Source: a virus
Taxonomy: Duplodnaviria > Caudoviricetes
IMG/VR virus record: IMGVR_UViG_3300033067_001448
Span: 1-32,772 of that record
Strand: one strand, 5' to 3'
Length of the DNA: 32,772 nucleotides
Part shown: piece by piece, positions 9,696 to 21,666 of the stretch
How the letters are laid out: each line of letters begins with the position of its first letter
How positions within the stretch are numbered: position 1 is the stretch's first letter
Position numbers and translations under genes: made by a program
Notes under the pieces: generated by a model
What the model was told of the DNA's origin: nothing
Databases searched by the model: none
The model's input: only the letters and a program-made list of their open reading frames with translations

Positions 9696-12413
9696 TTAAT
9701 TGCCGGCGGTGATCAGCCAATTCGTGCCGTCCGATTCCAGGTCGACCCACTTGCCCGCAGTGGCCGGCAGGATCGAGTTGGACGCGGCACCGCCCGTGAG
9801 CGAAACGATGTTGCTCTGCGAGGAAAGGATGGCAAAGGCCTGGCGAGTGGAGACCCGGATGCGTCGACCGGGGTACAGGGACGGGGTCGGCAGCACCACC
9901 GTGGTCGTCGCCGCGCGGTTGATCACCACTGCCACGTCGGCGGTGGTCACGTTGTAGTTATCGACCGTCTGCACAGTCGGGGCGCTCTTGATGGCCGAAG
10001 CGTTGAAGCGCGCATTCACGCCAAGCGCCGAAGAGGGGAACGCGCCCGGGATGTAGGTCTGGATGGCCTGGGCGCTGCCGGCGCCTGCGTTGATGAACCC
10101 CCAGGTGGTTCCCGAAACAAAGTTGAGGAACTCAAACCAGTCGTTGATCGAGTTGATCCTCACGCCCGGGTGGTCGTAGTACAGGTACGCCATGTAATGC
10201 GTGCCTTGGCTGTTGAACTGGCACACGTTCCCAAGGTAGATGTCGGAACCAAGCTCCGTGATGCAGTTGCGGAGGTTGATGTCGAACGATCGAGTGTTGG
10301 CTCCGGCGTAGGTCAGGAAATGCGCGCATTCCTCCACCTGGCAGTTGTCGATCGTCACATTGTCGATCGGGTTGCCCGTCTCGATCGGTGCGATCTTGAT
10401 GAACTCGGAGCTTGCAAGCGACGCACCGTAGGCAAAGCAAGTGTCCAGCTTCAAGAACCCACAGCGCACCAGGTGAACGCCGGAGCTATTGGCGGCCAGG
10501 ATGAACACACATTGGTCGATCTTCCAGGCGTCGGCGTTGTCGGTGTAGAAAAGAATGCCGTAGGTGCAGTAGACGAAATGGCAGTTCCGCACCGTGCCTG
10601 GGTTCACGCCCCAGTTGGTCGAGCTCGCCGCGTAGGAGTCGTTGACGTCGATGCCGCGCTCGAGGTTGTAGAAGTAGCAGTTGTCGATGACCGGGGCGTA
10701 GACGAACTGCGGGGCGCGCCCGTTGAACAGAATGCCCCTTCGCCCGGTGCCGATTGGCGAGGTGCCCGAGGTGGAGGCTGCTGCGCCGTGGGAGAGGTTG
10801 CGGATCGTGACGCGATCGGCGCGCACGGGGATCACCCAGATGGAGGTGCTGTTTGCACTCGTCCAAACGTGCGAAGGCACGGCCGTCTCGTTGGGCGACG
10901 GCGAACCGTTGGAGATGTTGACAACGCCATCACCCTCGACCGTCATGCCGCCGTGCAGCACGGTGGAGTCGGACACCTTGTAGTTGCCCGCCGGGATGCT
11001 GACCGTGCCGCCCCAGGCCTGCGAGTAAACCGCGTGCCGGAAGAAGCTGGTGTTGTCGGTCGTGCCCGAATCGGCCACGGCGCCGAACCATTGCGGATAG
11101 ACGCGGTCGACGGCACCGGGGCCGAAGATGACCGAGGCACCCGTGACCGCAAACGTGGTCGAGGCAATCGTGCCCCAGTCACCGTTCAGCGTGTAGACGC
11201 CAGGTCCGCCTGCGTTCCGCTGCGCGATGGTGACGCCCACAGGCAAACCTCCACCCGTCACCACGTGACCCGAATCCAGCACGGGGTTGGAGACGGCGGT
11301 CACGTTCAGCGTCAGGCCGGTCACGCTTGCGGTGATGGTGGTCGTCAGCAGCGGAGCGTTGAAGCAGCGCTTGAGCTTCGGCGCGGTGAAGTGCCCGTTG
11401 ATGTAGAGCCGCTTGCCGCTCGCCACCGTGATCAGGCCGGCGCCTTCCACGCGCACCGAGATGTTGCTCGGGATCGTGAGGTCAGACGAGATGCTGACCG
11501 GCGAGGTCACCAGCAGTTGCGCAGAGGTCGCGCCGATCGCGGTCACGGCCGTGGCAAGGTTGCCGCCGAAGTCGTCCACGTTCACGACGTCGCGCAGCTT
11601 GGCCTGTGCGCTGCGCGCCACGGCACCCGTGCCCGACTGCAGGAACGTCACGTCCTGCGCGTTGGCCGTGCCGATGGGCAGGGCCGCGGTGTAGCGCACG
11701 CCGATGTTGTTGGTGCCGGTGGGCGGGGCCACGGTGAACGTGAGCGTGGTGCCGCTCACGGTGAAGTTGGTGCCGTTGGCCTGAGGCACGCCACCGACCA
11801 CCACGTCGAGCGCGTTGACGCCGCCGGGGTTCGCGGTCAGGGTGAACTGCGTCGTGGCACCGTTGCCGCTGAAGCGGTCGTAGTAGCTGGTGCCCGCCAC
11901 CACCACGCTGGCGATGTCTTCGGGCGCGAGGTTGACCAGGCTGACGCCGTCGTCACCCCACGCGATCACCTGGCCGGCGACCGGCGGTGGCAGCGTGGCA
12001 TCGCCAGGCAGCGACACCGGCAGCTTGATCGTGCGGGCGTTCTCTTCGGCGAGCTGCTGGATCTGGATGACCGTGCGGTCGAACGCGTCTTCGATCGAAG
12101 ACGGGCTGAACTTGCCGCCGCCCAACAGGTCAAGCGTCTGCTCGTAGGCCAGGCCCGAGGTCAGCGTGAGCGACTCGCCCGAAGCGAGCGCCACGATGGG
12201 GGTCACCGTGCCGCCGGGCGTGGCATCCTGGTCGGGGTTCAGGCTGACGGTGTAGTCCGTCGTCAGCTCGAGCACGGACTCGAGCCCCGTCGCCGTGGTC
12301 TTCGTGACCACCAAGTCGGCGGCCTCGAACACCTTGAACGTGAACGGCAGGGCGGTGATGACGCCCGTCCCCAAGAACGGGCCAGCCCGGCGGGCGGTGG
12401 CGGGTACGGTCAC
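9696..12413 (-). CDS. Tail fibre/tailspike, 905 aa
   Basis: AGGAG+GTG start. N-terminal podovirus tail-attachment region (FTFKVF...DYTV...IEDAFDRTVIQIQQL), QSGTGAVARSAQAKLRDVVNVDDFG, and beta-helix start WFGAVAD..TDNT...GGTVSIPAGNY. Confidence 0.88.
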   Translation of the reverse strand: MTVPATARRAGPFLGTGVITALPFTFKVFEAADLVVTKTTATGLESVLELTTDYTVSLNPDQDATPGGTVTPIVALASGESLTLTSGLAYEQTLDLLGGGKFSPSSIEDAFDRTVIQIQQLAEENARTIKLPVSLPGDATLPPPVAGQVIAWGDDGVSLVNLAPEDIASVVVAGTSYYDRFSGNGATTQFTLTANPGGVNALDVVVGGVPQANGTNFTVSGTTLTFTVAPPTGTNNIGVRYTAALPIGTANAQDVTFLQSGTGAVARSAQAKLRDVVNVDDFGGNLATAVTAIGATSAQLLVTSPVSISSDLTIPSNISVRVEGAGLITVASGKRLYINGHFTAPKLKRCFNAPLLTTTITASVTGLTLNVTAVSNPVLDSGHVVTGGGLPVGVTIAQRNAGGPGVYTLNGDWGTIASTTFAVTGASVIFGPGAVDRVYPQWFGAVADSGTTDNTSFFRHAVYSQAWGGTVSIPAGNYKVSDSTVLHGGMTVEGDGVVNISNGSPSPNETAVPSHVWTSANSTSIWVIPVRADRVTIRNLSHGAAASTSGTSPIGTGRRGILFNGRAPQFVYAPVIDNCYFYNLERGIDVNDSYAASSTNWGVNPGTVRNCHFVYCTYGILFYTDNADAWKIDQCVFILAANSSGVHLVRCGFLKLDTCFAYGASLASSEFIKIAPIETGNPIDNVTIDNCQVEECAHFLTYAGANTRSFDINLRNCITELGSDIYLGNVCQFNSQGTHYMAYLYYDHPGVRINSINDWFEFLNFVSGTTWGFINAGAGSAQAIQTYIPGAFPSSALGVNARFNASAIKSAPTVQTVDNYNVTTADVAVVINRAATTTVVLPTPSLYPGRRIRVSTRQAFAILSSQSNIVSLTGGAASNSILPATAGKWVDLESDGTNWLITAGN

Positions 12414-12434
12414 AGGCGATCTCCTAGCAGTCGC

Positions 12435-12467
12435 GATTGTGGTTCAGGGGTCGCGCGTGACGGATAC
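12435..12467 (-). promoter_or_regulatory. Putative late promoter, copy 1
   Basis: GTATCCGTC-N16-CCACAATC, intergenic, upstream of the tail fibre gene. Confidence 0.8.
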
Positions 12468-12468
12468 C

Positions 12469-15400
12469 TCACCGCACCTTGGACTCGGGGCTGGCCGTGC
12501 CCGTGACGAGGCCACGCGTCAGGTCGACCGGGCCGGTCGGGTTGATCTTCCCGTCGGCCACGCCCGCGGCGTAGCCCACCGGGCGCGCCAAGCCCGACAC
12601 CGGCACGCCGGTCGCCACGCTGACCAGGGTCGCCACGTCGCGCACGGCCTTCTGTGCGCTGCCCTCGCCCGCGATCGCCTTGTAGACCGACTCGGGCGCG
12701 CCGACGGCGGACTCGAGCAGACTGATGGCCGGCGACAGCGATATGCGGTCGTCCATCGGGTTGCCGTTCAGGCGGTTCATGCCGGCCACCGCGAACTGAC
12801 CCACGATCGGGATCTGCGCCAGCAGGCCCTTGGCCGTGCCGAAGCCGAACACGGCCGCGAGCCAGTCGTCGACCAGCTGGCCGTCCTTGTCCTCGTCGTC
12901 GGGCCCACCGCGGAACGCCTGGGCGATCGCCTCGGCCACCCAGATGGGGGCCATCAGACCCATCATCACCACGTAGAACGCCTTGCCCGCGCCCTTCTTC
13001 AGGCCCACCTCGCTGGCGATCTGCTTGAGCGCCGTGCCGTTGGTGTTCGCCATCATGTTGAAGTAGCCCACGAACTGCGTGAACACGCGGGCGTAGGCCG
13101 GGCCGGTCTCGAGGCGGCTGACGTCCTCGGGCAGCGTGCTGCCCTGGGTCTGGCGCACGGTGCCGTCGGCGAACTTGATCGCGTCGGTGTCGCTCATGCC
13201 CTCGGCCAGCGCCTGGTTGTAGGCACCCGTCCACACGATCGGCGAGAGCACGTTGTCGAACGCGGTCTGCAGGAAGTAGGCGTGGCGCATCGACCAGGAC
13301 TGGGTGCGCTGGTACACGCCCGGCTTGATCAGGATGTCCTGGAACTGCTCGTTGAGCACGGCCACCTCGTTGGTTGCGCGGTCGGCCATGTAGGGCGACA
13401 GGTCCCACACGGTCTTGCTGACCTGGATGGGGGCTGCCACGTACTGGGCCAATGCGCGCATCAGATGCGCAGGCTGAATGCGCACGGCGGCTGTGGACAG
13501 GCCGGTGATCTGCTGGATGGTGTTGCTGACGTTGGCAAACATCAGCGCCATGCCGGCGCGCGCACGGATGATGCCCGGGATGCGGGCCCACTTGCCGGCG
13601 CCGATGACTGGCTCCTCGACGACCTGCTGCGCGCTGCGCTGCAGCCACGGTTGCAGCATCGTCTCGATGGCCGCCGGCTGCACGCGGTTCAGTGGCTGGC
13701 CGACCAGCTTGTTGGTGAGCAGCTTGCGCACGCCGCGGGTGGCCGGCGTCATGTGCGCAAACAGCAGCACCTTGTCCAGGTGCTGGCTCAGGGTGCGCAG
13801 GTCCAGCATCAGCGGGCGGTTGTAGCCCTCGACGCGGGACATCGTGAAGCCCTTGGCCGGTTGCGGGAAAGCGAAGGCCATGGAGTTGTTCTCCTCCTCG
13901 GCCAGCTTCTTGAGCTGGTTGTCCTTCACCAGGCGCGAGTCGACCTGCGCCGGCACGTAGCCGCCGCGGCGCGCGACGCCGAACGGGTCCACAAAAGCGT
14001 CGGCCGTGACCTCGCTGAAGTAGCGGCCGAACACGTCGCGGTGCGTCTTCTGCGCCAGGGGCTTGGTGTCCTCGAGCAGGTCCCACACGCCCTGGACGAA
14101 GTCCATGTGTGCGCGCTCGAGCTTGCCCTCGTTGACCAGGCGCTGCACGAACGCGTCCCACTTGCTGGTGTCGAGCTCACCGTTGGGCCCCTCCACCGCC
14201 CAGCCACGGCCGACCAGGAGCTTGCGCTTGTTGCTCTCGTTGCCGGTGTGCAGCAGCGCGTGCAGGATCTCGTTCATGGCGGTGCCCGCCGACGAGCCGG
14301 GCGTGCCGAAGGTGTAGCCGAGCTCTGGCGCGTCGATCACGCTGTCGCCGACGATGGGCGCCAGGTTGTCGACCAGGGCCTGGAAGCGCTTGCGGTAGGC
14401 GGCGCGGTCCTTGCGGTAGCGATCGGCCGCGTCCTTCACCGGCTGGAACACGTAGCGCAGGAAGGGCCCGCCGTACTTGCCGTCCATGCCCTCGGCCCAC
14501 TGCTCGACGCGGCGCAGGAACGCGACGCCCTGCTTCAGGAACAGGCCGCGCTCTTCTTCCTTGGTGACCGCCATGCCCTCGCCGGGCACGCGGTCAGGGA
14601 TGCCGATCTCCTCGAGCCGGTCGGCGATCTCGCCGGCCAGGTCGTCGATGTCCAGCAGGTCGCCGTCGATCTCGAGCTGACGCGAGCGCTTCGCCAGATA
14701 CCACATGCCCTGGATCTGCTCGTGCAGGCCGACCAGCTCGTCGAAGGTCAGCGACAGGATCGGCTGCGCGTTCTCGCTGACCGCGGCCACCATCGGCTCG
14801 ATGGCCGCCCAGGTGTCGGGGTCGTTGCGCTTCACCGCCTCAAGGTACGCGGCCGCGCTCTTGCTGGCCGGCGACTGCAGACCGTAGAGCTGCAGCACCG
14901 CGCGCGCAGCGTTGACGATGTCGGCGTCGCGGCCCTTCTCGACCACGGTCTCGTCGTTGCCCTTCAGCACGCGGGCAAAGAACTCGAGGATCTTCTTGCC
15001 CTCGGCGCGCGCATCCAGCGCAGCCTTGGCGGCGGCGTTGTTCAGCACCTGGTCCTGCTTGGCGCGCACGGCCTCCTCGGTCTTGCCGGCGGCCGTGGCC
15101 TCTTGCCACTTCTTGGCGGCGCGGCGCTCGGCGGCAGTGTGCTGCCAGGCCTTGGCCTTCAGATCTTGCAGCGTCGTCTTGCCGACGACGTTGGCGGCGA
15201 ACTGCTTGGCGGCGGTCATCAGCACGCTGACCGTGACCTTGCTGCCCTTGGCGTTCACCTCGCCGGTGTCCTGTCGGGTGCGCAGCATCTCGGCCTGCGT
15301 GCGCAGCTCGGATGCGAGGCTCCGCGAGCGGGCCTCGTTGTGCACGGCCTCGTTCGCGGCTTCCTTGATCGCGTCCTCGTTCATCAGGTCGCCGTGCTCC

Positions 15401-18400
15401 TCGAGCATGCGTTGCTCGGTGCGCGCGTCGATGTAGTCCTGCTTGCTGCCGAAGGCGGCGATCGACTCCAGCATGTCGTTGACCGACGGGTAGCCGAAGC
15501 TGTCGGCCACGGTCGCCATGTCCTCGTCGTTCATGTTGACCGGGCGCGCGGGCTTCGGGTTGGCGCGGTCCCACTCGATCAGGAACGCGTCGACCTTGTT
15601 GGCGATCTCGCGCTTGTTCTTTGCCAGGAGCTGGCCCTTCTGCAGGCCCTTCGCGTCCGGGTTGGCGTCGTAGAGCTCGGCCACCAGGCGCGCACGCTCG
15701 TCCTTGGCCGCCGTGTCGCGCTCGGTCTTCCAGGTGTCGAGGATGCCCTGGTACTCGGGCGTGATCCGCAGCGCGTCGAGCGCGGCCTTGGCACGCATCT
15801 CAGGCTGCTGGTTGGCCTCGACCGTGACCTCCTCCATGATCGCCTTGCGGATGCTGGCGGCCTTCTTCTGCAGCTCGCGGATGACCTTGTCGCGCGCCTT
15901 CACCGTCCACTTCAGGTCAGCCATGCTGCGCTTGCGCAGGCGCTCCTGCGCCTCGGCGTCGGCCGTCTCGTCGGGCACCATGCCGGCGGCCTCGTTGGCC
16001 TGAGCGATCTGCTCGTCGGTGGCGAGCATGCGGTCCATCACGCGGCGGATGTCGTCGTTGATCTCCGGGCGCTGCTCGGCCGGCAGCCGGGCAAGGAACG
16101 CCTTGATGCTGCCGTAGACCGACTTCAGCCAGGCCGAGAAGCGGCGCATCAGCGGCGCGAGCTCGGCGTTGGGCACCTTGCCCTCCATGACATAGGCCTC
16201 GACGAAGCGGGCCCACTGCTCGTGGTAGTTGCGCTTGTCGTTCAGCGCGAAGCCGCGCCACTGCTCGTCGGTCACGCCGAACTGCTTGAGCACCGTCTGC
16301 CAGTCGGCGACGATCTGCGCCGGGGCATTCGGCTGCGCGGCCACGTCGGCCAGCACCTCGAGGAAGAAGTGCCCCATCTCGTGCCACAGCGTCGAGAGGT
16401 CTGCCTCGGGGTTCAGCACCAGCTCGAGCGTGCTCGGGCTGAAGGTGCCGCGGGGGCCTTGATAGAGCTCGCCCGTCTTCTGCACGTCAGCGCCGTCGAA
16501 GATGACGAAGTTGCGGCTCTTGCTCTTGGCCTGCGCGCCGCGCGAGCCGGCGTCGAGGTAGCGCAAGCCCGGCACGCCGGCGTCGCGCAGGGCCAGGCTG
16601 GCGGCCTTGTCGCTGCCGAGCTTGCGGGACAGGAACTTGTAGGCGCGCTCCCCCGTCAGGTCGGACGGGCGCGACACGATCTTGCCGTTGAGGTTCATCA
16701 CGCGGATGCCGGCCTGTGCGTCTTCCCGCGTGTTGTACGCGGCGAGCACCTGGCCGTCGGGCGACTTGACCTCGAACGTCGTCATCGGCACGCCGAGCTT
16801 TTCGAGCGCAGCCTGCACCTTCTCGGGCTGGTCCTTGAGCTGCGCGTCGTAGTCCAGCAGGTCGCTGTCCTCGGGGACCTCGACGGTGTAGGTCTGGCCC
16901 TTGGGCGCCAAGGCGTCGATCTGCTTCGTCACCTCGTCGAGGCGCTTCTGCTTGCGGTCGATGAGGCGCTGCTGCTTCTTCGGGTCGACGGGGTCCAGCT
17001 CAAAGCCATCGCGCTGCTCGGGGGATACCGAGACGATGCGGCCCTTAGCGTCCTTCTGGACCCACTGCCCGCCCGCCTCAAGAATCCGGCGCTCGCGGTT
17101 GACCTGGTTGGTGAGCGTGCGCTGTTCCTGGAGCAGCGGCTGCGCTTCTTCAGGGAGGTTCGCCCGCGAGAGCGTCTCGCGATAGAACTCGGCGATGCCC
17201 TTCGACTCGGCGAAGTACAGCCCCCAGCCGTAGGCCTGAGCGCCCTCGCCGGTGCCGATCTTCTCGGTGCTGAACTGCTCGATGCCGCGGTGCGGCGTGC
17301 CGTGGTAGGCGGCCTGCTCCAGCACACCGCTGTCGGCGTCCGGTGCGCGCCCTTCGGTCCACGTCCACTCGGGCATCAGCCCGGTCTTCTGGTCGGCGAA
17401 GACCGTGTCCTCGACCTTGGCGGTCTGGTTGGCCTCGCCGTTGGGGCCGTAGTTCAGCCAGCTGTTCTGGCCGCGGGTCTCGCTGGTGATGGCGCCGACG
17501 GCCGGGCCGGTGAACAGGCGCACGTGCGCCTGCCAGGCGTTCTCCTCGCCACGCGCACGGAAGCCCGCGCCCTCGAGGCCGTGGCCGAAGGCGTCGTGCA
17601 CTGCGCGGAACAGGTCGTTGAAGAGCACGCGCTTCTTCGGGCCGTCGGGCGTGCCGTAGCCCCACTCGAGGCCGGTGTCGGCCAGCAGCGGGTTGTCGCT
17701 GACGTCGAGGTCACTCGAGCCGAAGCCCGCCTCGGTGGCGAACACGCCCATGGACTGGTTGGCCCGCAGGTCGCGCATCGCGTTCCACGGGTTACCGGCG
17801 TAGGGGTCGTTGGTCTCGTCGACCAGGTAGAACACGTAGCCGGCGCGCTGCAGCGCCAGGTACTGGGCCAGCGTCTGCCGGGCCAGGTCTTCGTACGCCT
17901 CCTTGACCCGCGGGTCGTTGGGGGCGTGCTGCATCTCCTCGTAGGCCGCAGCGATGCGGCGAGCGCGGTCCTCGTCTACTTGGACGAACGCGCCTTGGCG
18001 CTTGAGGTCGATGCCGGCTTCGAGGGCGTACTGCTCGGCGACAGCGACAAGGCGGGCGTCGGGGCCGGTTGCGCCTTCAACAAGCGGCGCACCTTCAAGC
18101 GGCGCAAGGCTTCCGCTCGAATACCGTCCTGCTCCGTCTCCGGTCGGTTGGGGTCGTCCATCGGTCAGGCCTCCTTGTTCGAGGGTGCCGGCGTTGCGCT
18201 GCTCGCGGAGTCGCTCGAGCCGGCGGGCGGCTTGGAGCTGGAGGCGTCGTTGATCTTCTGGAGCAAGCGCAGTTGCTTCTGCGCCAGCTCCGGCTGCTTG
18301 ACCAGCGTCGCCTGCAGCAGGTCGCTCATCAGATCGGAGGGCGTCGAGTTGGTCGGCATAGCCGGCCTCCTTCAGGATGTCCGCGTATGCGGGGTCGTTG

Positions 18401-21400
18401 AACAGCGAGCTGAAGTCAGGCGTGGCGTTGATCAGCTCGTCGGTCAGCTTACCCTCTTGCAGGGCGCGCGTCGCGGTGAGGTCGCCCACCTGCAGCTCGT
18501 ACACCGTCTTGGCCCAGGACCAGACGGTCTCCTGCACCTCGGCCGGCGTCCAGGTCTCGCCGGTCATCTTGGTCAGGAAGGCGGCCGCCTCGCGGGTGCG
18601 GGCCGACATCGCCAGGTAGCCCGAACCCTTGCCCGGGTCGGTGCCCAGCACGTTCATGGAACCGCTGAACATAACCTGGTCGACCAGCGCGTAGTTCGCC
18701 ATCCACGCGTCGTTGGTCACCTCGTCGGTCACGCCGATGAGGTTCAGGAAGAAGCTGTTGACCTTGGGGCCCGACAGCAGTACGCGCGAGGTCTCGGCAT
18801 CGCCGGGGTTGTCGGCGGTCAGCGCGCGCACGCTGTTGTTGATCCAGGCGTCGAGCACGCTGGCGCGGCCACGGCCGCCCTGCACGCTCTGGCCCATCAC
18901 GTCGATGATCGCCTCGCGCTCGGTCGGGCGGCCGGCGGCCACCCAGTTTTTCCACGTGTTGAGCGTGTTGAGCAGGTTGGTCTCGACCGAGCACTGCGGC
19001 GACAGCGCGGCCAGCAGCGCGGCGAAGCGCGGCGCGTCGGGGCCGAACACGGCGCTGATAGCCTCGGCCGACTGCTTGTACCAGCCACGCTTGGCCTGGC
19101 CGCCGAGCGCCACTGCGGCCATCTCTTTGGCCGACGGCAGCTTCTGGAGCTGGGCGATGATCTTGGCCGCCGTGCTGTCGGTGACCTTGCGCTGCTCCAT
19201 CGGCGTGAGCGCCTTCAGCAGCTTGCGCACCGCGGGCGTGACCGTCTTGACCCGGGACTGGGCCAGGGTGTCGGCGAGCTCGCGCACCTGCAGCTCGCCG
19301 TTCTCGATGCGGATCTCGTAGTTCTGCCAGGCGGGGTTGGCCTGCATGCGCTCCATGCGGGCCTGGAGCTGCTCGGGCGTGCCGCTGGCCTGGGTCTGCC
19401 ACTGCGGCTCGCGCGCGACGGGCGCCAGCACCTGGTCGGAGCTGATGTTGGTCTGCGCGCCAAGGAGCTCAGGCCGGAAGGTCTGCTGGCCGAGCATCAC
19501 CACCTGGCCGGGCTGCGTGCCCTCCATGCGGGTGGCGTAGCCCTTGTAGCCCATGTCGAGCAGCTTCGACTCGAACGCACGCGCGTCGGCCGTGCGCAGC
19601 TTCAGTGGGTCGGCGTCGGCGTCGTACACGCCGGTGAGGTTCACGCGGTGGGCACGCCCACCCACGCCGGCCTCGGGGCGCACGCCGGTGCCCTTGTCGA
19701 AGTAGAACGACAGGCGCTGGCGGATCCGTGGATCCGGGCTGTTCATGATCTCGTCGCGCGCGCTGCCCTTCAGGCCGGTGCCGTAGAACGCGGTCGACAG
19801 CAGCGAGCGGTCTTGCGTCGAGAAGTGGTAGCCGGTGACGCTGATCTCGCCCGGCTTGCTCGCCTCGAGCGCAGCGTCCTGCGTGCTGGCCTGCCCACGG
19901 ATCGCAAAGCCCTTGGCCTTGTAGGCGTCGTACAGACCCTGCGTGCCGAGGCCCGTGCGGGCGCCGTACGCGACGAAGAAGTGCGCCAAGCCGGCGGCGT
20001 AGGCCTCGGTCACGGCCGGTCGGTAGCGACCGGTGGCCGCGATCTGCTGGGCCAGGTCCTGCTGCACCGACTCGAACTCTTGCTGCGCGGCGGCCTGGTC
20101 CTGGGCCTGCTGCAGCACGCGCTGGGCATCCTGCTGCAAGGTCTCGGCGGCCTGCTGCGCCTCCACGCGCGTGATGCCGTCGGGCGTCAGGCGCGCGAAG
20201 TCGTTGAGCGTCTGCTCTAGTGGGGTGCCGGGGGCAACGGTGAGAACGTCCGCCATGGGGATCGACACTGTCGACCCGGCCGCCAGTGCGTCAGCGATCT
20301 GTTCTTGCACCGCCGGGGGTAGCTGCGCCAGAACGTCAGGGGGTAGCTGCGCCAGCACTTCAGCGTCGACATAGACCTCCTTCTTCGCGCCGTCGGTCTC
20401 GTTGACGACGCGCTCGGCGTAGGCGCGGAACTGCTCCGGGCTGCGCTGACGCAGCGCGGACTGGCCGGCTGCCTTCAGCATCTCTTGCAGGCGGTCCTGC
20501 TCGTAGACCAGCGCCTGGTCGGTGGCCTTCTCGACCAGCTTGTTGATGCCCTTGATGGTGGACGTCTGCACGCCCACGCCGACCAAGGTCGCGATCAGGG
20601 TCTGGTACGCCGCGTCGGGGCGCTCGGCGATGAACTGCGAGAGGGTCTTCTCGGGGTTCAGGTTGACCCACTCGTTGAAGTCCTGCGCCAGCGTGGTGAG
20701 CTGCTCGGTCGGCAGCTCGGTCAGCGCCTGGTTGCGCAGCGTCTTCATCAGCGAGGCGTTGGCCGCCAGGTCGCCGAAGAGCTTGCCCGCCGGGATCTTC
20801 TCGAACACGAACTCGAAGCCGCCCTGGGTCAGGCCGAAGGCGGTGGACTGGGCCTTGCCTCCTCCGGCCTCGCGTAGCTGGAAGTAGGCGTCAGCACCCA
20901 CGCCCGTGGCCTGGATGCCCGCCACAGCGGTGGCTGCAGCTTCAGCGGTGGCGAAGAGCCCGCGCGACAAGCCGGCCGGCAGCAGGGCCAGGTTCGTGCC
21001 CGCGCTACCGAGGCCCGACTTGATGCCCTGGCCGGTGCTGCTTTCAGGCTGCAGGCCGAAGGACTGGCGCGCGCTGCGCGAGTCGTTCGCCATGTTGCGC
21101 ATGTCGCGCGCACCGGACTCCCAGCCGACCAAGTCGTAGGCCATGCCGGTGATGTTGAAGATCAGCTCGCCCACGCCGGCCGTGGCGCCGAGGCCCAGGT
21201 CGACGGCGGCCTTGGGCGCGTCGGACGACAGGCTGTTGGGGCCGGCGCCAGTCAGGTACTGAAACGTGCCGTTGACCGCGCGCTCGATCTTGGTGAGCAC
21301 GGGGATGTCGTCGCTCGCGACCGTGGTGAAGTTCGGGTCGACGAGCTGGCGGGCGAGAACGGGCGAGTCTTGCGCCATGCGGACCAGGTCGATAGCCCGG

Positions 21401-21666
21401 GCCCGCTCCTTGATGCGCACCTCCTCGAGGTTGCGCTCGACCACACGCAGCGGCAAGCCGCTGGTCTTGCTCAGGCGCTGGCGCTCGGCCGCGATCTCGG
21501 GGTCGTCCTTGAGTGCGAGCTCGATGACGGCGCGAGCCTGCGCTTGCTGCGCCTTGGCCTCCTCCTCGCGCCGACGTTTGAAGAACGCGTCCGCGCTATT
21601 GTCGGCGGGCACGGGTTCCGGGTCGGCTGCGCGTCGAGACGCAACGACCTCGTCAGTGTTGATCAT
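12469..21666 (-). CDS. Giant internal virion/ejection protein with polyvalent enzymatic domains, ~3065 aa
   Basis: ATG at 21666 overlaps the upstream TGA; third ejection-protein position. Contains YHGT..GTGEGAQAYGWGLYF (ART-PolyVal-like), HEMGH and HDAFGH (metallopeptidase-like), and WY..LSPQ..GPKV..F..N..DAWM blocks. Confidence 0.88.
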   Translation of the reverse strand: MINTDEVVASRRAADPEPVPADNSADAFFKRRREEEAKAQQAQARAVIELALKDDPEIAAERQRLSKTSGLPLRVVERNLEEVRIKERARAIDLVRMAQDSPVLARQLVDPNFTTVASDDIPVLTKIERAVNGTFQYLTGAGPNSLSSDAPKAAVDLGLGATAGVGELIFNITGMAYDLVGWESGARDMRNMANDSRSARQSFGLQPESSTGQGIKSGLGSAGTNLALLPAGLSRGLFATAEAAATAVAGIQATGVGADAYFQLREAGGGKAQSTAFGLTQGGFEFVFEKIPAGKLFGDLAANASLMKTLRNQALTELPTEQLTTLAQDFNEWVNLNPEKTLSQFIAERPDAAYQTLIATLVGVGVQTSTIKGINKLVEKATDQALVYEQDRLQEMLKAAGQSALRQRSPEQFRAYAERVVNETDGAKKEVYVDAEVLAQLPPDVLAQLPPAVQEQIADALAAGSTVSIPMADVLTVAPGTPLEQTLNDFARLTPDGITRVEAQQAAETLQQDAQRVLQQAQDQAAAQQEFESVQQDLAQQIAATGRYRPAVTEAYAAGLAHFFVAYGARTGLGTQGLYDAYKAKGFAIRGQASTQDAALEASKPGEISVTGYHFSTQDRSLLSTAFYGTGLKGSARDEIMNSPDPRIRQRLSFYFDKGTGVRPEAGVGGRAHRVNLTGVYDADADPLKLRTADARAFESKLLDMGYKGYATRMEGTQPGQVVMLGQQTFRPELLGAQTNISSDQVLAPVAREPQWQTQASGTPEQLQARMERMQANPAWQNYEIRIENGELQVRELADTLAQSRVKTVTPAVRKLLKALTPMEQRKVTDSTAAKIIAQLQKLPSAKEMAAVALGGQAKRGWYKQSAEAISAVFGPDAPRFAALLAALSPQCSVETNLLNTLNTWKNWVAAGRPTEREAIIDVMGQSVQGGRGRASVLDAWINNSVRALTADNPGDAETSRVLLSGPKVNSFFLNLIGVTDEVTNDAWMANYALVDQVMFSGSMNVLGTDPGKGSGYLAMSARTREAAAFLTKMTGETWTPAEVQETVWSWAKTVYELQVGDLTATRALQEGKLTDELINATPDFSSLFNDPAYADILKEAGYADQLDALRSDERPAAGDAGQAAGAGAEATALAPEDQRRLQLQAARRLERLREQRNAGTLEQGGLTDGRPQPTGDGAGRYSSGSLAPLEGAPLVEGATGPDARLVAVAEQYALEAGIDLKRQGAFVQVDEDRARRIAAAYEEMQHAPNDPRVKEAYEDLARQTLAQYLALQRAGYVFYLVDETNDPYAGNPWNAMRDLRANQSMGVFATEAGFGSSDLDVSDNPLLADTGLEWGYGTPDGPKKRVLFNDLFRAVHDAFGHGLEGAGFRARGEENAWQAHVRLFTGPAVGAITSETRGQNSWLNYGPNGEANQTAKVEDTVFADQKTGLMPEWTWTEGRAPDADSGVLEQAAYHGTPHRGIEQFSTEKIGTGEGAQAYGWGLYFAESKGIAEFYRETLSRANLPEEAQPLLQEQRTLTNQVNRERRILEAGGQWVQKDAKGRIVSVSPEQRDGFELDPVDPKKQQRLIDRKQKRLDEVTKQIDALAPKGQTYTVEVPEDSDLLDYDAQLKDQPEKVQAALEKLGVPMTTFEVKSPDGQVLAAYNTREDAQAGIRVMNLNGKIVSRPSDLTGERAYKFLSRKLGSDKAASLALRDAGVPGLRYLDAGSRGAQAKSKSRNFVIFDGADVQKTGELYQGPRGTFSPSTLELVLNPEADLSTLWHEMGHFFLEVLADVAAQPNAPAQIVADWQTVLKQFGVTDEQWRGFALNDKRNYHEQWARFVEAYVMEGKVPNAELAPLMRRFSAWLKSVYGSIKAFLARLPAEQRPEINDDIRRVMDRMLATDEQIAQANEAAGMVPDETADAEAQERLRKRSMADLKWTVKARDKVIRELQKKAASIRKAIMEEVTVEANQQPEMRAKAALDALRITPEYQGILDTWKTERDTAAKDERARLVAELYDANPDAKGLQKGQLLAKNKREIANKVDAFLIEWDRANPKPARPVNMNDEDMATVADSFGYPSVNDMLESIAAFGSKQDYIDARTEQRMLEEHGDLMNEDAIKEAANEAVHNEARSRSLASELRTQAEMLRTRQDTGEVNAKGSKVTVSVLMTAAKQFAANVVGKTTLQDLKAKAWQHTAAERRAAKKWQEATAAGKTEEAVRAKQDQVLNNAAAKAALDARAEGKKILEFFARVLKGNDETVVEKGRDADIVNAARAVLQLYGLQSPASKSAAAYLEAVKRNDPDTWAAIEPMVAAVSENAQPILSLTFDELVGLHEQIQGMWYLAKRSRQLEIDGDLLDIDDLAGEIADRLEEIGIPDRVPGEGMAVTKEEERGLFLKQGVAFLRRVEQWAEGMDGKYGGPFLRYVFQPVKDAADRYRKDRAAYRKRFQALVDNLAPIVGDSVIDAPELGYTFGTPGSSAGTAMNEILHALLHTGNESNKRKLLVGRGWAVEGPNGELDTSKWDAFVQRLVNEGKLERAHMDFVQGVWDLLEDTKPLAQKTHRDVFGRYFSEVTADAFVDPFGVARRGGYVPAQVDSRLVKDNQLKKLAEEENNSMAFAFPQPAKGFTMSRVEGYNRPLMLDLRTLSQHLDKVLLFAHMTPATRGVRKLLTNKLVGQPLNRVQPAAIETMLQPWLQRSAQQVVEEPVIGAGKWARIPGIIRARAGMALMFANVSNTIQQITGLSTAAVRIQPAHLMRALAQYVAAPIQVSKTVWDLSPYMADRATNEVAVLNEQFQDILIKPGVYQRTQSWSMRHAYFLQTAFDNVLSPIVWTGAYNQALAEGMSDTDAIKFADGTVRQTQGSTLPEDVSRLETGPAYARVFTQFVGYFNMMANTNGTALKQIASEVGLKKGAGKAFYVVMMGLMAPIWVAEAIAQAFRGGPDDEDKDGQLVDDWLAAVFGFGTAKGLLAQIPIVGQFAVAGMNRLNGNPMDDRISLSPAISLLESAVGAPESVYKAIAGEGSAQKAVRDVATLVSVATGVPVSGLARPVGYAAGVADGKINPTGPVDLTRGLVTGTASPESKVR
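17976..18161 (-). CDS. Nested +1-frame small gene B in the giant gene, 61 aa
   Basis: AAGGAGG at 18170-18176, ATG 8 nt downstream; the host frame uses rare A/T-ending codons here. Confidence 0.6.
   Translation of the reverse strand: MDDPNRPETEQDGIRAEALRRLKVRRLLKAQPAPTPALSLSPSSTPSKPASTSSAKARSSK
18165..18359 (-). CDS. Nested +1-frame small gene A in the giant gene, 64 aa
   Basis: AAGGAGG at 18366-18372, ATG 6 nt downstream. The nested frame uses genome-typical codons (CTG CTG CAG GCG ACG CTG GTC AAG CAG CCG GAG CTG). Confidence 0.68.
   Translation of the reverse strand: MPTNSTPSDLMSDLLQATLVKQPELAQKQLRLLQKINDASSSKPPAGSSDSASSATPAPSNKEA
20217..20372 (-). CDS. Candidate nested +1-frame ORF, 51 aa
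   Basis: AAGGAGGT at 20375-20382 (short spacing); local A/T-ending codon patch in the host frame ends at the nested TAG. Confidence 0.35.
   Translation of the reverse strand: MSTLKCWRSYPLTFWRSYPRRCKNRSLTHWRPGRQCRSPWRTFSPLPPAPH

Follow-up and report, generated by a model that had tools for sequence, protein, structure and literature searches.

Two conserved genes in the +1 frame of a giant podophage ejection protein gene, each linked to one enzyme-like domain, as candidate cognate inhibitors

The 32,772-nt stretch of podophage DNA analyzed here (IMG/VR record IMGVR_UViG_3300033067_001448; referred to below as the window) encodes on its minus strand a giant polyvalent ejection (internal virion) protein, and two small open reading frames (ORFs), A and B, are written in the +1 frame of this host gene at the junction of two of its enzyme-like domains, DUF7178 and an HDxxGH domain. 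Comparison with related loci indicates that A and B are almost certainly genes under selection and shows that A closes the DUF7178 cassette, that B opens the HDxxGH cassette, and that each stays with its own domain through cassette shuffling. Judging from these comparisons, the two peptides are probably cognate binding partners of their domains, and we lean toward the more specific reading that each one inhibits the enzyme-like domain next to it.

RESULTS

Layout and codon usage of the nested ORFs

ORF A (64 amino acids [aa], 18359-18165) and ORF B (61 aa, 18161-17976) lie on the minus strand, as do all features given below unless stated otherwise, and are separated by 3 nt. Each ATG is preceded by the Shine-Dalgarno (SD) sequence AAGGAGG, at 18372-18366 for A (6 nt ahead of the ATG) and at 18176-18170 for B (8 nt ahead). 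The positions, lengths, SD sites, and 3-nt gap that had been read from the window in the original prediction were all confirmed. With an open frame, a start, and a ribosome-binding site that lie wholly inside another gene, A and B have the layout of embedded genes; neither ORF matched a Pfam family. The conserved core of A covers approximately residues 10 to 36 (18332-18252) and contains the motif PxLxxKQxRLL, while that of B covers residues 1 to 27 (18161-18081) and contains the motif PETEeDGxRAEALRRLKVR.

The original prediction had also held that the host frame drops its G/C-ending codons over these ORFs while the +1 frame keeps genome-typical codons, and sliding-window analysis of G+C content at third codon positions (GC3) bore this out. 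Host-frame GC3 is 0.57 across the 128 overlapped codons versus 0.94 across the remaining 2,938; it is 0.22 in the A core and 0.44 in the B core, where the +1 frame reaches 0.96 and 0.81, respectively. Elsewhere in the giant gene, none of 2,912 segments of 27 codons has a host GC3 of ≤0.5, the minimum being 0.63. The second SD is indeed built from rare host codons: it is encoded by CAA GGA GGC within the host cassette-boundary word L-E-Q-G-G (18169..18183), and 7 of the giant gene's GGA codons fall within the overlap versus 2 outside it. The SD of A is by itself weak evidence, because AAGGAGG occurs four times on the minus strand of the window, every copy being in the giant gene, and because A's copy is encoded by the ordinary host codons AAG GAG.

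Parts of the two ORFs are shaped by the host frame. The ATG of A arises from host Gly-Tyr-Ala codons, the S/T/P-rich tail of B is dictated by the host frame, and beneath the tail of A a conserved host-frame helix, AARRLERL (18208..18231), marks a place where selection is back in the host frame.

A third +1 ORF (51 aa, 20372-20217) has an AAGGAGG at 20382 and coincides with a mild dip in host GC3 (~0.72). It was ruled out as a conserved gene because its peptide is kept in 0 of 23 homologous rows, and it may be a chance or very young overprint.

Selection acts on the +1 frame in both cores

For ORF B, loci were retrieved by the HDxxGH domain alone (the best 80 of 324 matches, 79 loci). Anchoring on a host-frame motif placed 69 of 110 sequences, and 50 of these, the window included, remained below 85% identity. 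The +1 motif ETE was found in 40 of the 50 loci. An ATG followed by an open +1 frame stands at B's start in 36 of them, accompanied in 24 by an SD of at least 4 nt, and a stop lies at B's position in 31. In the controls, the same start was found in 0 of 50 loci in the +2 frame and, at four sites chosen within the domain core, in 3 to 11 of 50, with an SD in at most 1 of 50. Four-fold degenerate sites of the host frame are frozen on A or G under the B core (32/32, 26/26, and 27/27) and are less fixed at the end of the overlap (two free sites, 0.48 and 0.54) and in the B tail (0.35 to 0.72). Over 69 spanning-tree edges and 94 distinct stretches, the changes at host codon positions 1, 2, and 3 were distributed 0.52/0.26/0.22 in the B core and 0.20/0.19/0.61 beyond B's stop. 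Since the wobble position in the B core falls on host position 1, the pattern there is that of a +1 coding frame.

The comparison for ORF A started from 30 loci plus the best 80 of 314 matches, which yielded 101 sequences anchored on DUF7178 motifs and 47 nonredundant ones. After DUF7178, a +1 ATG followed by at least 35 open codons is present in 37 of the 47 sequences, and in 32 it has an SD of at least 4 nt, whereas four control frames gave 0 to 2 of 47 and, with an SD, 0 of 47. The +1 zone itself is open in 43 of 47 sequences, compared with 3 to 26 of 47 in five blocks of the DUF7178 core. Across 42 tree edges, changes at host positions 1, 2, and 3 were 0.56/0.25/0.19 in the A core versus 0.18/0.10/0.73 in the DUF7178 core. 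K28 and L32 of A are at least 90% conserved in the unselected alignment A7, which is the alignment that speaks to conservation; alignment A4 was selected by motif and is no such evidence. A profile made from motif-selected rows matches 30 of 46 +1 frames, 19 of them being its seeds, and no other frame. A search with the A alignment gave only 6 confirmed loci among 79 pattern matches.

A close relative shows the same selection. Its contig differs from the window at 37 positions across 814 nt, with no indel listed; 32 of the differences are readable, and six of these fall on the A/B junction. The stop of A is retained through a change from TGA to TAA, an ATG now comes directly after it, and both changes in the cores (at A29 and B27) are silent in the +1 frame and nonsilent in the host frame.

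Taken together, the shifted wobble position and the frozen four-fold sites reveal selection on the +1 frame beyond the constraint imposed by the host frame. The original prediction had proposed alignments of homologous domains as a check, and in these the SD, ATG, and open +1 frame recur in most relatives (against 0 to 1 in the controls that include an SD); the expected suppression of synonymous variation is likewise seen, both in the host four-fold sites under B and in the scarcity of position 3 changes in both cores. Within the cores of ~25 residues, these patterns show that selection acts on the +1 frame and that the host reading there is a by-product linker. Neither a compensated double frameshift nor an assembly error accounts for the ORFs, since dozens of genomes share the layout and no indel is listed for the close relative; the ORFs are, moreover, conserved in relatives whose core GC3 spans 0.2 to 0.97, which excludes the double frameshift.

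Each nested ORF accompanies one domain

That A follows the domain with WY..LSPQ..GPKV, which is DUF7178, and that B precedes the HDxxGH domain had been noticed in the window, and this order is kept across relatives. A DNA pattern derived from the B peptide matched 53 places in IMG/VR (31 distinct), all 53 of them over the HD lead-in; the HD motif is visible at 52, and the remaining contig ends before the motif. This linkage is partly forced, because the last positions of the pattern overlap the HD lead-in. The 900 residues upstream of the HD domain are variable: of 49 loci, 16 have DUF7178 there, 11 have ART-PolyVal, 2 have GNAT, and 20 lack any Pfam match. Conversely, the frame of A is open in 42 of 46 loci whatever comes next (the HD domain in 10, another domain in 24, and the gene end in 8) and closed in 4. 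Each ORF thus shows the tight linkage to one effector domain across rearrangements that is expected of immunity-type genes.

Related arrangements occur as well. A +1 ORF of at least 35 codons ends no more than 12 nt from B's start in 12 of the 50 B loci, its peptide being mostly unlike A, and GenBank record MW202722 holds such a tandem +1 pair, unannotated, before the HD domain. A frame scan of 61 GC-rich loci, some of which share a contig, found 64 segments that better fit another frame, 60 of them in the +1 frame; 41 of the +1 segments lie at A- or B-type junctions and 19 lie elsewhere. Further +1 segments with a codon bias like that of genes were seen at other domain junctions of giant genes, at L006:2326, L020:4846, L115:5074, L124:2350, L125:122, L140:193, L088:526, L164:1849 and 4900, and L170:1057 (locus:position).

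The arrangement is widespread and not universal, because the window's other cassettes and some intact HD and DUF7178 domains have no recognizable partner. The original idea that each enzymatic cassette travels with its own embedded gene consequently stands for A with DUF7178 and for B with the HDxxGH domain; as a rule for every cassette, it fails in this window. Its suggestion that the A/B junction falls on an LEQ boundary motif applies to the window, where the word is L-E-Q-G-G, and does not generalize, L-x-Q-G preceding B in just 9 of 50 loci.

Unrelated peptides occupy B's place on the HD domain family

A sister HD subfamily was sampled through the best 80 of 438 matches, giving 55 nonredundant loci. 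The B profile matches 46 of 49 loci of the B set and 0 of 55 in the sister subfamily. At B's place, a peptide of a different family, C, is found in 17 of the 55 sister loci (5 of them seeds) and in 0 of 49 B-set loci, and it is absent from the +2 control. A third family, D (EAEQ/GE...KHR..QRR), occupies the same place in 4 of 55 sister loci (3 seeds; L285, L295, L301, and L324). The cultured cyanophage MinM2 (OQ594354.1) has an unannotated family C +1 ORF of 69 codons with a strong SD before its HD domain (L247:2633-2842, from record position 18098; GC3 of 0.97 in the +1 frame and 0.54 in the host frame), and the ORF is also present in two records identical to MinM2, OL906435.1 and PP438419.1.

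In Microcystis phage Mel-JY33 (PP438424.1; L252, ~1200-1425), host GC3 falls to 0.6 to 0.7 over ~75 codons upstream of the HD domain, and a short +1 ORF unlike B or C is found there.

B persists in bacterial genomes where the enzyme frame is broken

The B profile matches 293 clusters of separately called proteins. Among the best 150 B-family proteins, 3 are A+B fusions, 2 contain two different B variants, and several have B joined to other nested families. When GTDB genomes were scanned with one A+B fusion, 10 loci were recovered: B is intact and the host frame is broken on both sides in 7, the HD frame is intact in 2, and it is partly open in 1. In the 7 enzyme-broken loci (L333:1919-3151, L336:2264-2764, L338 at ~2600-2737, L342:2501-2905, L337, L340, and L341), no open stretch of the host frame exceeds 85 codons upstream or 76 codons downstream, and the lead-in is often still legible. 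In one free-standing copy, a predicted membrane segment precedes a fusion of B with A. In the cultured Variovorax sp. WDL1 (L336), the B-containing ORF begins where an exonuclease gene ends, next to sspB. The neighborhood of L342 includes a SocA/Panacea antitoxin and a fragment of a type I restriction system, and L333 and L338 lie near insertion sequence elements. New C-terminal extensions are common to L336 and protein P0300, and to L342 (identical to P0205) and P0332, which suggests that such proteins have been retained and are not simply decaying. When metagenomes were scanned with the A+B fusion P0240, no match was obtained.

The two adjacent domains

DUF7178 (18352..19110; Pfam E value of 1e-7) is predicted to adopt the HhH-GPD fold of an Ogg2-like DNA glycosylase/apurinic-apyrimidinic (AP) lyase. 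Its structure model has a predicted local distance difference test score (pLDDT) of 94. The best VIA match is Thermotoga Ogg (Tm1821), with a Z score of 11.4 and a root mean square deviation of 3.5 over 177 aligned residues, and Foldseek gave SsOgg at a probability of 0.98 and an E value of 0.26. Because helical proteins can reach a Z score of 13 by common arrangement, the fold assignment rests on the consistency of the VIA rows, the top 22 of which are HhH-type DNA glycosylases or the queuine-salvage enzyme DUF2419. A Lys (K116, 18765-18763) and an Asp (D134, 18711-18709), 18 residues apart, are invariant in 44 of 44 rows. In MjaOgg, Lys129 and Asp147 are described as lying 18 residues apart as well (PMC5069365). 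K116 and D134 are thus the likely catalytic pair, matched by spacing and fold rather than by residue-level superposition. The likeness of DUF7178 to the Ogg2 8-oxoguanine glycosylase/lyases described in that paper covers predicted fold and Lys/Asp spacing; DUF7178 differs in that sequence identity is 11 to 13% and in that it is carried in a virion protein.

The HDxxGH...GEE domain (17353..18102) has its His residues at 17598 and 17583 and its Glu at 17547, and its PLxGxP lead-in overlaps the helix of B. Its structure model (pLDDT of 95) has no clear solved relative, the best Z score in structure comparison being 2.7; the minimal zincins abylysin, YbeY, and acel_2062 appear at Z scores of 2.0 to 2.3 among 11 rows. 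For neither domain did Foldseek find a PDB match at an E value of ≤0.001, and sequence searches of solved structures returned nothing useful for either. The HD model has 21 matches in BFVD at an E value of ≤0.001, mostly unnamed or uncharacterized phage proteins, and an ESM Atlas search gave only hypothetical clusters. The motif reads H-D-x-F-G-H, so it departs from the HExxH/HEXXGH motif of zincins in having Asp at the position of the catalytic Glu. DPP III is described as carrying HEXXGH and EEXRAE motifs (PMC5667867), which the His spacing and the downstream EE of the HD domain resemble, with Asp in place of Glu. As a lead, the HD domain is possibly a zincin-like metalloenzyme that may bind metal.

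In mycobacteriophage Rizal (gp101/gp102; L251), a gene with DUF7178-like motifs, recognized by eye, stands directly before a stand-alone HD gene, and the two domains may therefore act together. Skog genes 165/166 (L250) have the same order, a gene with glycosylase-like motifs and then a separate HDxxGH gene. Neither of these actinophages shows a clear nested ORF at this place, and the two domains may belong to one pathway.

The giant host gene and its setting

The host gene (12469..21666, ATG at 21666) encodes 3,065 aa with an LPD22 domain (Pfam E value of 2e-16), DUF7178, the HDxxGH domain, and ART-PolyVal, the last being a weak match (E value of 5e-5) under its curated cutoff. Its product is large, combines several domains, and includes ones of the LPD and PolyVal types, and it thus qualifies as a polyvalent protein. 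The window is part of a podophage genome, and the minus-strand neighbors include genes for a head-tail connector, a GP7 capsid protein, Bbp16, and T7 gp13/gp14-like proteins. From these neighbors, we tentatively label the giant protein a BPP-1-like ejection protein. No sigma-70 promoter was found in positions 17700 to 19200.

L-x-Q/A words (LEAS, LAQS, LEQG, LEQA, and LYQG) recur near domain boundaries, at residues ~645, 846, 1207, 1494, and 1779 in a 3,110-aa numbering, and are possible cleavage or recombination marks. An antisense ORF of 2,641 codons lies opposite the giant gene (12295-20220, plus strand) and is likely a shadow of that gene's strong G/C third-position bias.

DISCUSSION

The reading that we favor is that A and B encode inhibitors of their adjacent domains. 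In the mechanism that we propose, both peptides would be translated from late mRNA by means of their own SDs, with B coupled to the stop of A. Each would bind its own domain in the producer cell and keep it away from phage DNA and host targets while particles are being assembled. On packaging or ejection of the giant protein the peptides would stay behind, so that the domains would become active in the next cell only. With the inhibitor encoded in the second frame of a linker, an enzyme-inhibitor pair could be shuffled as a unit with no stop in the fusion protein. The exchange of partners on the HD domain family and the persistence of B where the enzyme frame has been lost lend this inhibitor or immunity reading indirect support. 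A complex prediction for A (44 aa, alignment of 44 rows) with DUF7178 including its tail helix scored 0.14 against a mark of 0.32 and is no evidence either way.

Several observations weigh against the inhibitor reading or limit its reach. Nested genes are absent from the window's ART-PolyVal cassette and from the domain at approximately residues 655 to 790, where host GC3 is ≥0.85. Of 47 loci, 4 have a closed +1 zone behind DUF7178; the A profile fails to match 16 of 46; and 34 of the 55 sister-subfamily loci match neither family C nor family D. No recognizable nested ORF accompanies the intact HD motif in L012, L099, and cultured phage BD1 (L248), or the stand-alone HD genes of Rizal, Skog, and Dagobah; distant or unrecognized partners may exist in such cases. 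Five of the seven enzyme-broken loci are contigs of metagenome-assembled genomes (MAGs), and several of the seven, being MAG contigs or retaining remnants of the host frame, could be decaying prophages. Finally, the all-pairs ratio of nonsynonymous to synonymous differences (pN/pS) favors the +1 frame only weakly for A (0.82 versus 0.98); this ratio is saturated, and the tree-edge count was used in its place for that reason.

The strict tie of each peptide to one domain and the amphipathic helices of the cores would fit equally well a pair of cognate positive partners, that is, folding or packaging chaperones or activating subunits that aid folding, capsid loading, or action after ejection. 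It is hard to see what use such a partner would be in the absence of the enzyme frame, but B is retained in 7 of the 10 genome loci, in fusions, and in doubled variants, and unrelated peptides substitute for each other on one domain family. We consider positive partners unlikely.

We give slightly less credence still to the view that the peptides are independent small effectors, for example, in anti-defense or superinfection exclusion, with targets in the host and with a link to the domain that reflects nothing more than shared DNA. The helix of B does overlap the HD lead-in, so that its linkage is partly forced; many domains have no partner; and bacteria could retain a peptide for its own effect. 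However, the core of A sits in free linker and still remains after DUF7178, different families occupy the same position of one domain family, and none of the 53 B matches in IMG/VR lies away from the HD lead-in.

It is very improbable that the ORFs are not translated separately, being relics of ancestral genes, recoded segments joined by frameshifting, or an artifact of codon bias in a G/A-rich linker. In favor of this view, the host frame dictates the tail of each ORF, the +1 ORF at 20372 has a perfect SD and is not conserved, and no RNA holder is listed among 22 runs. Against it, purifying selection in the +1 frame is ongoing between close relatives, start, SD, and stop are kept (31 of 50 at B's stop), and B-like proteins are called separately in 293 clusters.

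Returning to the inhibitor reading, its broadest form is a tentative one. Polyvalent ejection proteins would carry a hidden operon in their second frame, with a specific inhibitor for each dangerous cassette, and bacteria might have pirated these peptides without the enzyme frame and fused them into poly-inhibitors against phage-injected enzymes.

Polymorphic toxin systems include immunity genes, orphan immunity genes, and poly-immunity proteins, and their immunity genes stand after the toxin gene. By analogy, A and B resemble them in having a small partner per effector domain, replacement of partners, survival without the effector, and fusion into arrays; in particular, B and one A+B fusion persist without the enzyme frame much as orphan immunity genes would. 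The difference is that the immunity genes of those systems follow the toxin gene, whereas A and B, as candidate immunity genes, are written inside it.

The host gene itself belongs with the polyvalent proteins of phages and conjugative elements described by Iyer et al. in 2017 (PMC5512222), having LPD22 and ART-PolyVal matches, here within a podophage virion module. In the main text of that paper the word "overlap" does not occur, and its passages on immunity and on reading frames do not mention nested partner genes. A functional parallel is the intragenic antitoxin RpnS of the bacterial defense gene Rpn, described by Zhong et al. as the C-terminal part of the same protein made from an internal start (bioRxiv 10.1101/2023.05.02.539157). 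There, a toxic protein that acts on DNA is blocked by a small protein translated from within its own gene, and the same logic is proposed here. As that work presents RpnS, A and B differ from it in being out of frame and unrelated in sequence to the host protein, in numbering one per domain, in residing in a phage virion protein gene, and in being putative inhibitors; lying in the +1 frame, they are not of the Rpn type, in which a C-terminal part of the toxin is produced from an internal start. Embedded genes are described as rare in Caudoviricetes in a paper on the lambda Rz/Rz1 spanins (PMC8785237). As portrayed there, Rz/Rz1 shares with A and B the embedding of one phage gene in another, but it is a single fixed lysis pair, in contrast to the numerous interchangeable families of peptides encoded where domains meet in a multi-enzyme ejection protein, and A and B are not spanins. 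Our literature search, made at the level of abstracts and with most subscription journals outside its coverage, found no report of this nested-partner arrangement.

If the inhibitor reading is true, a large class of phage virion genes has been misannotated, apparent low-complexity linkers being genes; in the GenBank records checked (MW202722 and OQ594354), the nested ORFs were missed. It would also explain how a multi-enzyme weapon can be made without harm to the phage's own replication, and the nested genes would flag dangerous effectors among uncharacterized domains and provide candidate inhibitors, one of them directed at a fold like that of DNA glycosylases. The free-standing bacterial copies point to a candidate route of anti-phage defense, and with cyanophage MinM2 and Variovorax sp. 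WDL1 both in culture, the phage and bacterial halves of the proposal can each be tested.

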